A stretch of 64,000 nucleotides of DNA from the sequence record OR062945.1, one strand, 5' to 3'. Positions 40,328 to 63,905 of this stretch are shown piece by piece. This stretch comes from Escherichia phage 308Ecol101PP. Position numbers and translations under genes: made by a program. Position 1 is the first letter of the stretch. Each line of letters starts with the position of its first letter. The notes beneath the pieces were generated by a model. That model ran no database searches, was not told where the DNA came from, and was given only the letters and a program-made list of their open reading frames with translations.

Positions 40328-40831
40328 ATGAGTCTTTACACTGAACTGAATAAAAAATCTGAAGAATCCGCTGAAACTATTTTTAAAAACGTGCAAAAGC
40401 GTATTTTAGAAAAGATGTATAACACTGCAGCTAAAGGTGAAAAATCTTGCCGGTTTCCGATGAGGTGTTCTTCCGATTTATGCGCAAATACTATTGAATG
40501 GCTGGAAAGTGAAGGTCTTACGGTAGAGAAAAACCCGGCGTCTTCTATTGACAGTGAATCATATATTAGTATTTCTTGGGATAAATCAAGGGTAGAAGAG
40601 AAAGATGGTGATTGGGTTGTAGATGTTAAAACTTCTGATGGCGGACGTTCTGTTGAAGTTTCAGCTGTAGTTAAAGGTACCCACGAACAAAGGACTTGGG
40701 GATGGGGTGGTGAAGAAAAAGAAATTGTTCTTAGTGTGATTGCCAGGTCAACTAGTAATAAAATTGCACAAAGCATCATTGACGCTGCAATTGCTGAAGC
40801 AGAAAAAATTTGCAAAATTAAAAATAAATGA
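40328..40831 (+). CDS. hypothetical protein
   Basis: 167-aa ORF. Confidence 0.55.
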   Translation: MSLYTELNKKSEESAETIFKNVQKRILEKMYNTAAKGEKSCRFPMRCSSDLCANTIEWLESEGLTVEKNPASSIDSESYISISWDKSRVEEKDGDWVVDVKTSDGGRSVEVSAVVKGTHEQRTWGWGGEEKEIVLSVIARSTSNKIAQSIIDAAIAEAEKICKIKNK

Positions 40832-40889
40832 TGTACAAACGCCAAGGACGGTGTTACTATAGACCTATCAACTACAGAGGAGAAACAAA

Positions 40890-41117
40890 ATGGCTACAGT
40901 TAGTATTGATGTCGTTGATTATGAATACACCGAAGAAGTTATTCGCAGCCGTCACCCTGAAGTTCGTATCGATTCAGTCCAAGATTCCAAGTTTTGGACA
41001 ACCGAGCTTAATCTGAGTGGTCCTTATGAAGCTGTTAAGAAGTTCATGGTTGAAGAATACTGCGAAGGCATGCACCCCGAAGACGCCGAGTTTTATGTCA
41101 ATTTGATTAAAAAATAA
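40890..41117 (+). CDS. hypothetical protein
   Basis: 75-aa ORF after promoter-like TGTACAAAC...TACTAT and AGAGGAG RBS. Confidence 0.5.
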   Translation: MATVSIDVVDYEYTEEVIRSRHPEVRIDSVQDSKFWTTELNLSGPYEAVKKFMVEEYCEGMHPEDAEFYVNLIKK

Positions 41118-53137: not shown

Positions 53138-53597
53138 AAACTATATCAAGGGCGATATTGTCGCCCTGTTTTCTAAAGGTAATAATATCGCTCATGGGTG
53201 TAATTGTTTTCATACAATGGGCGCCGGCGTGGCAGGACAATTAGCAAAGGCTTATCCAAAAATTCTGGAAGCCGATAAACTTCAAACCGAATTTGGAGAC
53301 GAGTCTAAACTCGGGACTTATTCGGTTTATGAAAAATATTTTAAGACCCATAAAGCTTATTGCTTTAATCTTTATACACAGTTTGAGCCTGGACCTAATT
53401 TTGAGTACTATGCTTTAATGAATTGTATAATAGAATTAAATGAATTCGGAAAGAATAAGATAACAAAGCCTGTACTTTATATGCCAAGAATTGGTGCAGG
53501 TATCGGTGGCGGAAACTGGGATGTCATCGAAGAGATTTTAGATACGTATTCCACTAAACTAGAAATTGTGATTGTTGATTGGGAACCATTATTATGA
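53130..53597 (+). CDS. macro-domain-like protein (start uncertain; longest frame begins at TTG 53100)
   Basis: IAHGCNCFHTMGAGVAGQL and RIGAGIGGGNW resemble macro-domain Gly-rich motifs. Confidence 0.4.
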   Translation: MIKNYIKGDIVALFSKGNNIAHGCNCFHTMGAGVAGQLAKAYPKILEADKLQTEFGDESKLGTYSVYEKYFKTHKAYCFNLYTQFEPGPNFEYYALMNCIIELNEFGKNKITKPVLYMPRIGAGIGGGNWDVIEEILDTYSTKLEIVIVDWEPLL

Positions 53598-58473: not shown

Positions 58474-58737
58474 ATGAAAAAATTGGTAATTGGTTTATTC
58501 GCAGTAATGATGGCATTCTCTGTTGGTGCTACCACGGGTGCAGCCGGCGGTAACCAGTCTTCTGGGCCTTCTAATGGTTCGGTAAATGCATCACATTCTC
58601 AGGGTATTGAGAACATTAAATCAAGCTATATTAATAGCACGGCCGGACAAGCAACTGAAGCATGGTCAAAGGGACGAGTAGTTACTCGCTCCGTATTCTG
58701 TGATATGCCTAATTATGTTGCTAAGTGCGATAAGTAA
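58474..58737 (+). CDS. exported small protein
   Basis: 87 aa; signal peptide MKKLVIGLFAVMMAFSVGA. Confidence 0.5.
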   Translation: MKKLVIGLFAVMMAFSVGATTGAAGGNQSSGPSNGSVNASHSQGIENIKSSYINSTAGQATEAWSKGRVVTRSVFCDMPNYVAKCDK

Positions 58738-58741
58738 ATGT

Positions 58742-58765
58742 GGGGACCTTCGGGTCCCTTTAGGG
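58742..58765 (+). terminator. rho-independent terminator (module B, second copy)
   Basis: GGGGACC-ttcg-GGTCCC followed by TTTAGGGGG. Confidence 0.55.
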
Positions 58766-58789
58766 GGTTAAAATATTTTTAAAAAAGTA

Positions 58790-60321: not shown

Positions 60322-60849
60322 ATGAACGCTAAAGATATTTTCAACCTGGTAAATTATAACGACGGTAAATTTAAATCTGAAGCACAAAGCAAGTTCTTTA
60401 ATGACGTTGCTTATGGTAACGAGATTACCGTGGACGGAGGTCAGATTTTCAAATCTCGCTGGAATTGGATTGCTATCATCGATTCAGTTGGAATTGTGGA
60501 AGTCTACAAAAACACTAACAAAAAACGTACATTATTCTGGTCTCGTGAAACTAACGAGCAGTACAAAAAGGATAAAGCATCTCGTTTATCCAAAGTAACC
60601 CAGGAAGATATCGAGTTTATCAAGAAAGATATCGAGATGTACGAAAATTTAATCGCTGAAGACCAGGCAGTACTCGATAAGTTTGATGAAATTAAAGCTT
60701 CTCGTGAAATCCCTGACTTCATGAAAGAAACAGTAAACGAACGATACGCTCTCACTTCAGAACGTATTGCAAACTATACAAAACAGAAAGCAGAACGTAT
60801 TAGTACTCTTCGGAAATTTGAAGAACGTTTAAAGACGGTTCACGCATAA
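60322..60849 (+). CDS. hypothetical protein
   Basis: 175 aa. Confidence 0.55.
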   Translation: MNAKDIFNLVNYNDGKFKSEAQSKFFNDVAYGNEITVDGGQIFKSRWNWIAIIDSVGIVEVYKNTNKKRTLFWSRETNEQYKKDKASRLSKVTQEDIEFIKKDIEMYENLIAEDQAVLDKFDEIKASREIPDFMKETVNERYALTSERIANYTKQKAERISTLRKFEERLKTVHA

Positions 60850-60911
60850 ACGCTTTACCCAAGGACGGGTTATAATGGTTTTGAGTTCCAATTCAATCTG
60901 AGGAAATAGAT

Positions 60912-61907
60912 ATGAGCATTACATCTGATGCGGTAAAACATGAAATTAACGGTTTATGTGCTTCACAGATTAAAGTGTGGTTTAAAGACCATAATGATCG
61001 CAGAGCACTTAATTATGAGCAAATTGCTATCCAAGTTCATCAATTACTGACTAGTAAATTTGATTTTCATATGCCGTCTGAAATTTATACTAATCTACCG
61101 CGAGCGCTTATTAAAGCGTGTAAAGGTTACGGAAAATCAATGGCTGATGGAATCTTCAGCGCGCTGAATAAACTTAACGTTCTGTCGATGATTAACTCTA
61201 ACAACATTCTGCGTAATCTAGGACGTACTGATTTGTTCGGTCGTGAACAGTGTAAAATGCCTTTGAAATGGATTGTTGCTCATCTTAACGAGAACCAAAC
61301 ACGTTTTATGGCCGTATCAGCACGCTTACAAATGGGCCTAGATCGTCAGATGAACTTTAAAACTCATCCACGGTATTCAGGTTCAACAGACTTTTATAAA
61401 TGTGAGCTTCAAAAGGTTGCAGGTAAAACTGTCTTAGTAGTTCGTGTAACGTTTGAAGGACGACGTCAAGGATATTTTGACCTAATCGGCTCTGGTCTTA
61501 AACATTGTGGATTTATTGACGAAGTTGATATTAAGCGAGACGGCATTGGATACCGTATTGGATATGTTTGTACTCTTAAAGAAGAGATTTCAGGACCAGC
61601 ACCAGGACTAAAAGACGTTAGATATAAAGACGAGCTTGTTGAAGAAATAAAAGAAGTTGAATATGATATCAACCAAGAAGATGCTCTTAAAGACCTTATT
61701 GATGAACTAAACCAAGACATTATTCCGGTTCAGAAATTTGAATCAAAACATGCTGAGCAAATCAAATACTTTGAAGCTTTGATTAACGAACTTAATGTAA
61801 CTATTCAACAGACTGATGATGAAATCTCACGATTAGCAGGCTTAAATGGTAAAAATAAAACGGAACGAGCTAATCTTATTCAAGTAGTAAAACTTCTTAA
61901 GGAATGA
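60912..61907 (+). CDS. hypothetical protein with C-terminal coiled coil
   Basis: 331 aa. Confidence 0.55.
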   Translation: MSITSDAVKHEINGLCASQIKVWFKDHNDRRALNYEQIAIQVHQLLTSKFDFHMPSEIYTNLPRALIKACKGYGKSMADGIFSALNKLNVLSMINSNNILRNLGRTDLFGREQCKMPLKWIVAHLNENQTRFMAVSARLQMGLDRQMNFKTHPRYSGSTDFYKCELQKVAGKTVLVVRVTFEGRRQGYFDLIGSGLKHCGFIDEVDIKRDGIGYRIGYVCTLKEEISGPAPGLKDVRYKDELVEEIKEVEYDINQEDALKDLIDELNQDIIPVQKFESKHAEQIKYFEALINELNVTIQQTDDEISRLAGLNGKNKTERANLIQVVKLLKE

Positions 61908-61936
61908 TGTACAACCAGGGATGGTTGGAGTATAAT
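61908..61936 (+). promoter_or_regulatory. early promoter with stem-loop
   Basis: TGTACAACCAGGGATGGTTGGAGTATAAT. Confidence 0.5.
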
Positions 61937-61962
61937 AAATTTTTCAACATGAGGAATATAAA

Positions 61963-62898
61963 ATGGCTTCTATTACACGTAGAGAACTTATCAAAGAATT
62001 TACCTCGAACGCATATACCCCAGGTCCTAATCCTATCCGTATGCCTGTAAAGACTCCTGAAGAGATTGAGGAAATCTGTTCATATTATGGGATTACTTCT
62101 CGTAAGTTTACTCAATTTGAATGCGTTACTAACACACCAGTTAAAGAGTTCATTAAAAATGGCGAGTTCAGTCGTTTATTAGCCAAACAGAAACTTCGTA
62201 ATTTTTGTATTGGCGGTGAAGGACAATATTTTGCTAAACAGTTCAGAAATAACCTTAACAATCTGATGGCCATTGCTTCTCGTATTCGTCCTCAAGCAAT
62301 TAACATGAAACATTTGAAATATACTTACGATAAGTTAGAAATCATGGTTATCAGTGAGAACGAGTTCACTCTTACGTATAAACCTAAGAATGATAACGTT
62401 GCTCGTGTATTCCACCAAGCGTTGGAAGTGTTAGGTGATAATATTTACCAGATTAAAGCAATTTATTCTCGTGAGCTTAATATTATCAACCCTATCAAGA
62501 ATAAGGGCCATATCGCTATCCAGGCTCGTGTATCTATTGGTAAAAAGGTTCCTGCGCCATGGTGGCACAAAGACTCTGAATACTATCAAAATCTTAAAAA
62601 GGAAAATGCAACGTTCGAAGCGTCAATTACTGCAACCCCAATTGGCAACGCTGAAGTTCTAGGTGCATATTCTACTGCTCCATCTATATACACTTCACCG
62701 TCGACTAAACTGGAAATCTCTAACGGTCTTCTTCCTGCCGAAGATTACTATTATAATCAAATCAAAGCCACTGTGGACCAACTGTCTGTTGAACTTGACA
62801 AAGCACAAGCTAAGCTTCGTGATGCTCAACAAGTAGTTACCAAGCTCCAGTTGCAGTACTCTAAACTTTTTAACGCAATGAATGCATTAAAATCATAA
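61963..62898 (+). CDS. hypothetical protein with C-terminal coiled coil
   Basis: 311 aa. Confidence 0.55.
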   Translation: MASITRRELIKEFTSNAYTPGPNPIRMPVKTPEEIEEICSYYGITSRKFTQFECVTNTPVKEFIKNGEFSRLLAKQKLRNFCIGGEGQYFAKQFRNNLNNLMAIASRIRPQAINMKHLKYTYDKLEIMVISENEFTLTYKPKNDNVARVFHQALEVLGDNIYQIKAIYSRELNIINPIKNKGHIAIQARVSIGKKVPAPWWHKDSEYYQNLKKENATFEASITATPIGNAEVLGAYSTAPSIYTSPSTKLEISNGLLPAEDYYYNQIKATVDQLSVELDKAQAKLRDAQQVVTKLQLQYSKLFNAMNALKS

Positions 62899-62901
62899 AT
62901 C

Positions 62902-62931
62902 AGTTTACAACCAAGGATGGTTGGAGTATAA
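62902..62931 (+). promoter_or_regulatory. early promoter with stem-loop
   Basis: GTTTACAACCAAGGATGGTTGGAGTATAAT; near-copy of the 61908 element. Confidence 0.5.
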
Positions 62932-62960
62932 TCTTTCTATCTTAACGAGAGGAAAATATT

Positions 62961-63905
62961 ATGACACGTTCACATTACATTGATTATTTTGCAGGTCTTA
63001 TCGCTAACGTTCATGCCCAACGTGCTTCTGGTTCATTAGGATTTGATGTTCCACACCGAGTTGTAGTAAGTGGTATTCTTCGCGATTTTGGTACATACAC
63101 AGGCCAAGAAAATCATATCTGTAAAGATACTCAGAATGCATATTCTCATTCATTAGGGACACTGCTTCAATGGTTCAAACGTTCTCGTTTATTATCTTCT
63201 ACTGTAGCTCGCGATAACATTAAAAACTTTATGAAGCCGAGCTTTATTAAATCTGTGACATCTAAAACCGATTTGGTTGAATTCACTATTGTTAATGATG
63301 TTAAAAAGACTCATTTGGCTGATTGGTTATCTACCATTCCTGAAACTAAATTTGCTGATAAATTTGCTTGTGAATTCAATAACCAAGTGAATATGCTTTT
63401 TAAACATTCACGTAAATTATTCACAGGTGGCGATGATCGTACAAATACAGTTCATGCTAAAGATTGGGTTACTGCAGTGTTCAAACCAACAGGTAATGGT
63501 ACCGCATCATTATCAATTGATATCCAGGTTCCTTATTACTACTCACGTAATCTCGGTACCATGAAAGCCGAAGAAATTAATAAGCACAACAAAACCATTC
63601 GTTCGCTGTCTTATAAACTTCGCATGATGTTAAGAATCATGGACGTGGTAGAAATGTATGATGAAACCGAAGATAATGGTTCAATGTTATACAGTTCTCG
63701 CATTCAAATTAAGTTGAAGAACCCTAACGAGTATAAGCCTATTAAAGAGCCTAAAGCAGAAAAAGTTGATAACTTAAGAGAAGAACGCGAATATCTCAAA
63801 TCTCGCCTGAAAGAAGTCGAAGCCCAGATTGCAGAACAAACTAAATCATTAAAAGCTCTGAATGCAAAAGCTGATGGTTTACGAAATGCCATTGAGGTTT
63901 TATAA
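62961..63905 (+). CDS. hypothetical protein with C-terminal coiled coil
   Basis: 314 aa. Confidence 0.55.
   Translation: MTRSHYIDYFAGLIANVHAQRASGSLGFDVPHRVVVSGILRDFGTYTGQENHICKDTQNAYSHSLGTLLQWFKRSRLLSSTVARDNIKNFMKPSFIKSVTSKTDLVEFTIVNDVKKTHLADWLSTIPETKFADKFACEFNNQVNMLFKHSRKLFTGGDDRTNTVHAKDWVTAVFKPTGNGTASLSIDIQVPYYYSRNLGTMKAEEINKHNKTIRSLSYKLRMMLRIMDVVEMYDETEDNGSMLYSSRIQIKLKNPNEYKPIKEPKAEKVDNLREEREYLKSRLKEVEAQIAEQTKSLKALNAKADGLRNAIEVL

Follow-up and report, generated by a model that had tools for sequence, protein, structure and literature searches.

The early gene nrdC.5 of phage T4 encodes a protein that counteracts the SIR2-type defence Dsr1 (Srikant, Guegler and Laub 2022; PMC9391042). When it is expressed, a T4 clone that has lost the region can again infect a host carrying dsr1, and T4 clones with this deletion are viable on K-12 (PMC9391042). 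According to a 2026 preprint, the Dsr1 sensor recognises the phage major capsid protein (PMC12803255). A second described system concerns regulation: promoter-early stem-loops (PeSLs) were reported from RB49/phi1 and later from the T4/PST pair. Their promoter consensus is TTTACW-N17-TAYWAT, and a part in the modular shuffling of hyperplastic regions has been proposed for them (Arbiol 2010, Comeau 2014; PMC2839356, PMC4122927). Here, we describe three consecutive genes, w60912, w61963 and w62961, in a 64,000-nucleotide stretch of Escherichia phage 308Ecol101PP (OR062945.1; hereafter, the window). They are diverged tandem paralogs of one superfamily, NrdC.3/4/5/6, which is restricted to T4-like phages. 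The genes, the cassette type that precedes them and the one known function have all been described before; possibly new are the union of the three Pfam/PHROG families in a single superfamily and, within the promoter spacer, a covariation-backed hairpin whose loop is conserved.

The three genes and their superfamily

The window derives from a Mosigvirus, an RB69-like T4-type phage, and the three-gene stretch lies within the hyperplastic nrdC.11–nrdC region. The 3.4-kb stretch is 96–99% identical in many Mosigvirus genomes, such as DCP548, HY126 and APCEc01. The three genes are annotated as hypothetical in APCEc01, between the gene for a nucleotidyltransferase, nrdC.11 in T4, and nrdC, which encodes the phage thioredoxin, and a related-locus search identified seven close loci in viral contigs. 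We refer to the families of nrdC.3, nrdC.4, nrdC.5 and nrdC.6 as F3, F4, F5 and F6, each represented by one alignment whose orthologs were drawn from ten annotated phage loci and three protein searches. The gene order of the window (nrdC.11, nrdC.10, nrdC.9, nrdC.8, F6, F5, F3, nrdC.2 and onwards) matches that of T4, and Mosigvirus lacks nrdC.4 and nrdC.7.

The coordinates given for the three genes in the initial annotation proved exact. They are ATG open reading frames (ORFs) of 331, 311 and 314 amino acids (aa), each with a GAGG Shine-Dalgarno sequence 8–9 nt 5′ of the ATG, and all three are under purifying selection, with ratios of nonsynonymous to synonymous substitution rates (dN/dS) of 0.05–0.24. 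The first, w60912 (60912..61907, + strand), is the nrdC.6-type gene and follows the nrdC.8 homolog. Its product matches PHROG 2257 over the full length (E 3.9e-127) and T4 NrdC.6 at 29% identity by BLASTP (E 2.6e-18), and its close homologs carry Pfam PF26899 in precomputed annotation. The second, w61963 (61963..62898, + strand), is of the nrdC.5 type (PHROG 2351). It matches Pfam DUF7235 (PF23882) with 383 bits at a cutoff of 30 (E 1.5e-114; profile positions 1–307 of 307), and T4 NrdC.5 scores 420.6 bits with the same profile (E 5.3e-126). The two proteins are 24% identical by BLASTP, w61963 being the positional ortholog, and a protein search seeded with w61963 alone returned only relatives of at least 84% identity. 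The third, w62961 (62961..63905, + strand), corresponds to T4 nrdC.3, with 57% identity at the protein level (BLASTP, E 2e-122) and a full-length match to PHROG 1435 (E 8e-105); its close homologs carry PF26897, which is common to NrdC.3 and NrdC.4. It sits upstream of nrdC.2, and the next ORF begins in a TAATG overlap at 63905.

The resemblance of w61963 to T4 NrdC.5 extends from the full-length Pfam match to the position after the nrdC.6-type gene, the architecture, the tail type and prereplicative expression. The two differ in the low sequence identity and in their setting: w61963 has its own PeSL promoter and direct-repeat flanks, whereas T4 nrdC.5 directly follows nrdC.6 and has no promoter of its own. 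Compared with T4 NrdC.3 and NrdC.6, which are uncharacterised ORFs, w62961 and w60912 have kept synteny, and w60912 has a full tail where that of T4 NrdC.6 appears frameshifted. PHROG families 2257, 2351 and 1435 are all listed without an assigned function. An NCBIfam search matched nothing, the Pfam, NCBIfam and PDB comparisons revealed neither an enzymatic domain nor a known fold, and a search for a further family member elsewhere in the 64-kb window found none.

Direct BLASTP among the three window proteins gave no match, so profiles were needed to compare them. With hhalign, F3 matched F4 at 98.5% probability (E 3e-15) and F5 matched F4 at 95.5% (E 1.5e-8), the latter alignment spanning residues 63–225 of w61963, which is the body of the protein and not its tail. 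F6 matched the combined F4 and F5 alignment at 72% (E 3.5e-5). Controls with reversed alignments and 30 column shuffles gave E values of at least 0.024 throughout. We then scanned 1.84 billion representatives exhaustively with a joint profile in HMMER, which recovered only 23 clusters (50% identity) at E ≤ 1e-3; the named matches and the ~170-kb contigs of the new clusters are T4-like phages. Homolog searches with mixed alignments failed to return entire subfamilies to which the same profile gives high scores in a local search. Several clusters bridge the families: P0189, of the Klebsiella phage F48 type, matches the hidden Markov models (HMMs) of both F4 and F5, and P0186, P0187, P0190 and P0192 match those of F5 and F6.

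A collinear superfamily alignment could be built from 18 representatives. It contains the motifs ‘sRlLS..a..iLrNF’, ‘F..N...l..AaRL..G..R’ and ‘L..AL..m..V’, and F3, F4 and F5 have an ‘M(K)TR..’ start in common. All members follow one architecture: a bundle of N-terminal helices, a conserved pair of helices bearing the first two of these motifs, a variable alpha/beta region, a flexible linker and an amphipathic heptad helix. Within each orthologous group, conservation is highest in the tail and around the core motifs and lowest in the N-terminal helices, alpha/beta region and linker.

AlphaFold models, which cover w62961 and w60912 only, are alike in the order of their helices and strands, the w60912 model being mediocre (predicted template modelling score, pTM, 0.57) and that of w62961 reaching a pTM of 0.72 with a predicted local distance difference test (pLDDT) score of 79.6. 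Both start with five N-terminal helices, the first at residues 3–23, continue with the long helix that carries the second motif and a β-hairpin, and end with a further helix, more strands, the linker and the terminal helix. The Foldseek targets in BFVD that the two models share are the Acinetobacter T4-like phage proteins E5E4A2 (E 9.9e-6 and 7.5e-5 for the two models) and E5EYP0 (8.9e-6 and 1.2e-4), and the w60912 model also matches JS10 nrdC.6 in BFVD. The PDB yielded no solved structure of the family and no clear fold match. Since the profile matches, the bridging clusters, the collinear motifs, the congruent models and the shared BFVD targets agree, we conclude that the three genes are diverged paralogs. 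The N-terminal regions, described as unrelated in the initial annotation, are therefore homologous. As a further observation, two BFVD entries of Acinetobacter phage Acj61 with consecutive accessions, E5E4A1 and E5E4A2, both match the w62961 model, which suggests that tandem paralogs with this predicted fold are present in distant Acinetobacter T4-like phages.

The initial annotation had all three proteins end in a heptad-rich helix of about 50 residues. Heptad statistics confirm such a tail for each protein and the AlphaFold models do so for two of them, but in w60912 the helix is broken. The tail of w61963 (aa 259–311; 62737..62895, + strand) has no Pro or Gly and about eight uninterrupted heptads, with hydrophobic residues at 94% (15/16) of its a/d positions; the corresponding values are 80% for w62961 and 65% for w60912, against 23–30% at other positions. 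The best 28-residue heptad windows rank in the top 0.06–0.4% of all windows from ORFs of the 64 kb, that of w61963 being in the top 0.06%. In w62961, a disordered linker (aa 259–271) precedes a 42-residue helix (aa 272–313; 63774..63902, + strand), which the model likewise places at 272–313. The w60912 tail (aa 276–331; 61737..61904, + strand) forms two helices, interrupted at Gly310 and Gly313 and modelled at 281–309 and 313–330; its linker (aa 226–275) is acidic and longer than in T4 NrdC.6.

The pattern ‘[RK]..L..A#..LLK’ at the end of the tail is common to the superfamily. Tails of F6 orthologs are 57–95% identical, compared with 10–34% in the preceding linker and 10–23% in the variable parts of the family, and the w62961 tail is 72–84% identical to those of the T4 and RB14 alleles. 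In the PDB, the superfamily profile matched only GCN4-type coiled coils, aligned to the tail (E 0.02), and sequence searches gave coiled-coil noise only. Oligomerisation via the tail is plausible. We also noted that T4 NrdC.6 (locus L002, 10067-10894, minus strand) ends in ...ELIFLFNNMMMKFSDYLD, and that RB14-type orthologs run on as ...ELNISIQQYDDEIFRLSGL...LLKS; the reference T4 copy thus appears to be frameshifted within the tail.

Promoter hairpins and gene turnover

Each of the three genes is preceded by a promoter-like element with a small hairpin. The initial annotation had given every gene its own early promoter, which fits the last two genes, whose elements are of the sigma-70 early type; that of w60912 is of the MotA-box middle type and has no -35 hexamer. 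The two early elements were reported there as near-identical, and this is borne out: both read TGTACA/TTTACA-N17-TATAAT, with a hairpin of -7 to -8 kcal/mol. Before w61963, the PeSL-type element (61908..61936, + strand) consists of a -35 TGTACA (61908–61913), a hairpin CAACC/AGGGAT/GGTTG (61912–61927), a GGAG (61927–61930) and a -10 TATAAT (61931–61936). Before w62961, the equivalent element (62904..62932, + strand) comprises a -35 TTTACA (62904–62909), a hairpin CAACC/AAGGAT/GGTTG (62908–62923), a GGAG (62923–62926) and a -10 TATAAT (62927–62932), and it matches 11 of the 12 sigma-70 consensus positions. The 25-nt motif CAACCARGGATGGTTGGAGTATAAT occurs in exactly two copies in the window (61912–61936 and 62908–62932; none expected), which agree at 24 of 25 positions.

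The element before w60912 (60848..60876, + strand) is built differently. It has the MotA-box-like sequence AAACGCTTTA (60848–60857), a 13-bp spacing, a hairpin ACCC/AAGGAC/GGGT (60857–60870) and a -10 TATAAT (60871–60876); with no -35 hexamer at 17 bp, it does not fit the early PeSL consensus. The rule for MotA boxes is (a/t)(a/t)(a/t)TGCTTtA located 12 ± 1 bp upstream of a TAtaaT -10 (PMC2988021), from which the w60912 box deviates by one mismatch (T to C) that is also present in the mapped T4 promoter PnrdC.7. The element aligns with a T4 element downstream of nrdC.8, whose -10 corresponds, by coordinate conversion, to a start site at 53325, i.e. to the middle promoter PnrdC.7 listed as mapped in T4 (Hinton 2010; PMC2988021 Table 1). 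The two share the position after the end of nrdC.8, the AAACGCTTTA box, the 13-bp spacing, the TATAAT and the embedded hairpin core. They differ in what they serve: PnrdC.7 drives nrdC.7 in T4, whereas in the window nrdC.7 is absent and the predicted promoter precedes the NrdC.6-type gene. Given the fit to the MotA box and the orthology to a mapped promoter, w60912 is driven by a predicted MotA-type middle promoter, in addition to any read-through.

Before different paralogs, the same CC-AAGGAY-GG core with complementary arms is located between the -35 hexamer or MotA box and the TATAAT, and it was found in Mosigvirus, Tequatrovirus, Dhakavirus and one Yersinia phage. Among ten element variants, 94% of the cells of the stem are paired and four of the five pairs show changes on both sides, giving a covariation score of 0.72 against 0.16 in shuffles (0 of 500 as high); the loop is nearly invariant. 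Because its arms co-vary, the predicted spacer hairpin is evidently under selection. An Rfam search found nothing. The hairpin was also considered as an intrinsic terminator, for which its weak stems without a U-tract offer no support, and a consensus terminator scan did not list the hairpin elements. The terminator role shown for the RB49 PeSLs is doubtful here, as the predicted stems are short and weak and a U-tract is missing. Directly 3′ of the hairpins before w61963 and w62961 (61927–61937 and 62923–62933), we observed GGAGUAUAAU(A/C), which resembles the RegB/S1 consensus GGAGRAYARAA; as a speculation, RegB/S1-type cleavage at this site would leave an upstream mRNA ending in the hairpin.

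Like PeSLs, these elements are repeated intergenic sigma-70-like promoters with a stem-loop; they belong to a hyperplastic region, border accessory ORFs and, as phage ESCO47 shows, fall at the edge of an indel. In contrast to the published ones, in which the stem-loop is located upstream of the promoter, the stem-loop here is inside the -35/-10 spacer, and it is short, with a conserved AAGGAY loop and no U-tract. One copy in the window is built on a MotA middle promoter, resembling the ‘PmSL’ of phage nt-1.

The indel in question removes a single gene. w61963 is flanked by the two near-identical elements, and the Mosigvirus ESCO47 lacks exactly this cassette; its junction joins the left flank of the first element to the right flank of the second and forms a hybrid hairpin with one mismatch. 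Judged from this junction, the repeated cassettes act as recombination points, through which individual paralogs would be gained, lost or replaced. The F6 genes of ESCO47 and the window differ at a synonymous divergence (dS) of 1.36, compared with 0.12–0.20 for the flanking genes. Alleles of NrdC.3 from the window, RB14 (locus L016) and T4 (locus L002) are mosaic: T4 and RB14 are 81% identical over aa 1–90 and 42–51% over aa 91–258, and the window and RB14 are 66% identical over aa 1–90 and 90% over aa 91–160, which indicates intragenic recombination. Judged by these mosaics and by the F6 divergence, alleles are exchanged by recombination. The number of copies varies between one (Klebsiella phage F48) and four (T4). 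Two loci contain remnants of the array. In ACG-C40 (locus L011, 6805-7213), a deletion has left some 70 codons of nrdC.5, after which come the final 70 of nrdC.3, and Pinarejo (locus L012, 7001-7135) has a deletion remnant with only an unannotated fragment of the nrdC.6 tail.

Possible function and alternative explanations

We consider it probable, with some reserve, that the three genes form a diverged NrdC.3–6 paralog array with its own regulatory cassettes which, by analogy with NrdC.5, constitutes a counter-defence or host-range set. Each gene would be expressed from its own cassette, the first from a MotA-type middle promoter and the other two from PeSL-type sigma-70 early promoters, all three with the small conserved hairpin (CC-AAGGAY-GG core) predicted in the promoter spacer. 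The tail would oligomerise the protein, and the variable body would bind a host target. As counter-defence or host-range factors on the model of T4 NrdC.5, the paralogs might each be tuned to a different host protein, with w61963 as the member most likely to have an anti-Dsr1-like activity. The phage protein DSAD1, which inhibits DSR2, is a functional analogy only, in that it blocks an NADase defence of the SIR2 type; its target is a different defence protein, and no sequence or structural similarity to the family was found. The initial annotation had envisaged one family in which different effector domains are joined to a common oligomerisation tail. Of this, the family, the conserved tail and the exchange of alleles stand, whereas the bodies are homologous and probably diverged versions of one fold.

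Several points weigh against this interpretation. The functional link comes from a single paralog in a different phage, with only 24% identity to w61963, and no function has been reported for NrdC.3, NrdC.4 or NrdC.6. Gene-wide positive selection was not seen in the three genes (dN/dS 0.05–0.24). F6 has the weakest link to the other families (72% in hhalign), and the w60912 model is of mediocre quality (pLDDT 69.7, pTM 0.57). Finally, the hairpins are weak, at -5 to -8 kcal/mol with stems of 4–7 bp and no U-tract.

The alternatives differ in how much of this evidence they accommodate. If unrelated N-terminal effector domains had each been fused to a common coiled-coil module by domain shuffling, the blank BLASTP comparison, the placement of the proteins in three separate families by Pfam and PHROGs and the better conservation of the tails relative to most of the body would all be expected. 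However, the profile-profile matches span the body and not the tail (F5–F4, residues 63–225), the core motifs are collinear, bridging subfamilies exist, and the two models agree in secondary-structure order and share Foldseek targets, so that we regard this explanation as highly improbable. The homologous tails with the same ‘..L..A#..LLK’ ending could instead join the paralogs as subunits of one hetero-oligomeric complex with a single shared function, in line with the adjacency of the genes, their common prereplicative expression period and the presence of two to four paralogs together in most of the enterobacterial T4-like phages examined. Such a complex is unlikely in view of the combinations that occur: F5 is missing from ESCO47, F4 from Mosigviruses, F6 from Pinarejo and F5–F3 from ACG-C40, F48 carries a single copy, and the tail of T4 NrdC.6 appears frameshifted; moreover, plasmid-borne T4 nrdC.5 alone restored infection by the region-deletion clone.

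The genes could also encode accessory proteins of host takeover or metabolism, acting for example in nucleotide metabolism or as transcription modulators, with the anti-Dsr1 effect of NrdC.5 being indirect. Their location between nrdC.11, a nucleotidyltransferase gene, and nrdC/nrdD/nrdG would suit such a role, as would the purifying selection. On the other hand, the absence of any detected enzymatic domain or known fold speaks against it, the differences in presence and the allele replacement are typical of host-range accessory genes, and the genes are dispensable, as the viability of the T4 region-deletion clones on K-12 shows. We therefore judge a metabolic or takeover role to be rather unlikely.

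T4 NrdC.5 has the only known activity within the family. If NrdC.3, NrdC.4, NrdC.5 and NrdC.6 form a single superfamily whose tail is conserved and whose body changes fast, the other paralogs would be candidates against other E. coli defences, and the allele classes could be compared with the differing host ranges of therapeutic T4-like phages. The structure of the cassettes illustrates how a gene of this sort enters or leaves the array. For T4 hyperplastic regions in general, this refines the existing view rather than changing it, the array being ordinary for a region of this kind.

Neighbouring genes and further promoter modules

Upstream of the array, the window contains w57453, w58836, w59976 and w60322, which correspond to T4 nrdC.11, nrdC.10, nrdC.9 and nrdC.8, respectively. 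An 87-aa ORF with a signal-peptide-like N-terminus (58474–58769) is located between nrdC.11 and nrdC.10, where T4 has no counterpart, and at its 3′ end a GC-rich hairpin with a T-run (58742–58780) resembles an intrinsic terminator.

A second promoter module, TATAGACCTATCAA, is present in six copies on the + strand of the window (3462, 40858, 45243, 51753, 58816 and 60292), compared with 0.05 expected. Two of these copies belong to promoters upstream of the nrdC.10 and nrdC.8 homologs, and that of the nrdC.8 homolog is part of a hairpin, AGGTCTATA...TATAGACCT. Another promoter with a hairpin in its spacer lies at 40822–40875 (TGTACA, AACGCC-AAGGAC-GGTGTT, TACTATAGACCTATCAA); here the AAGGAY hairpin and the second promoter module occur together, upstream of a 75-aa ORF (40890–41117).

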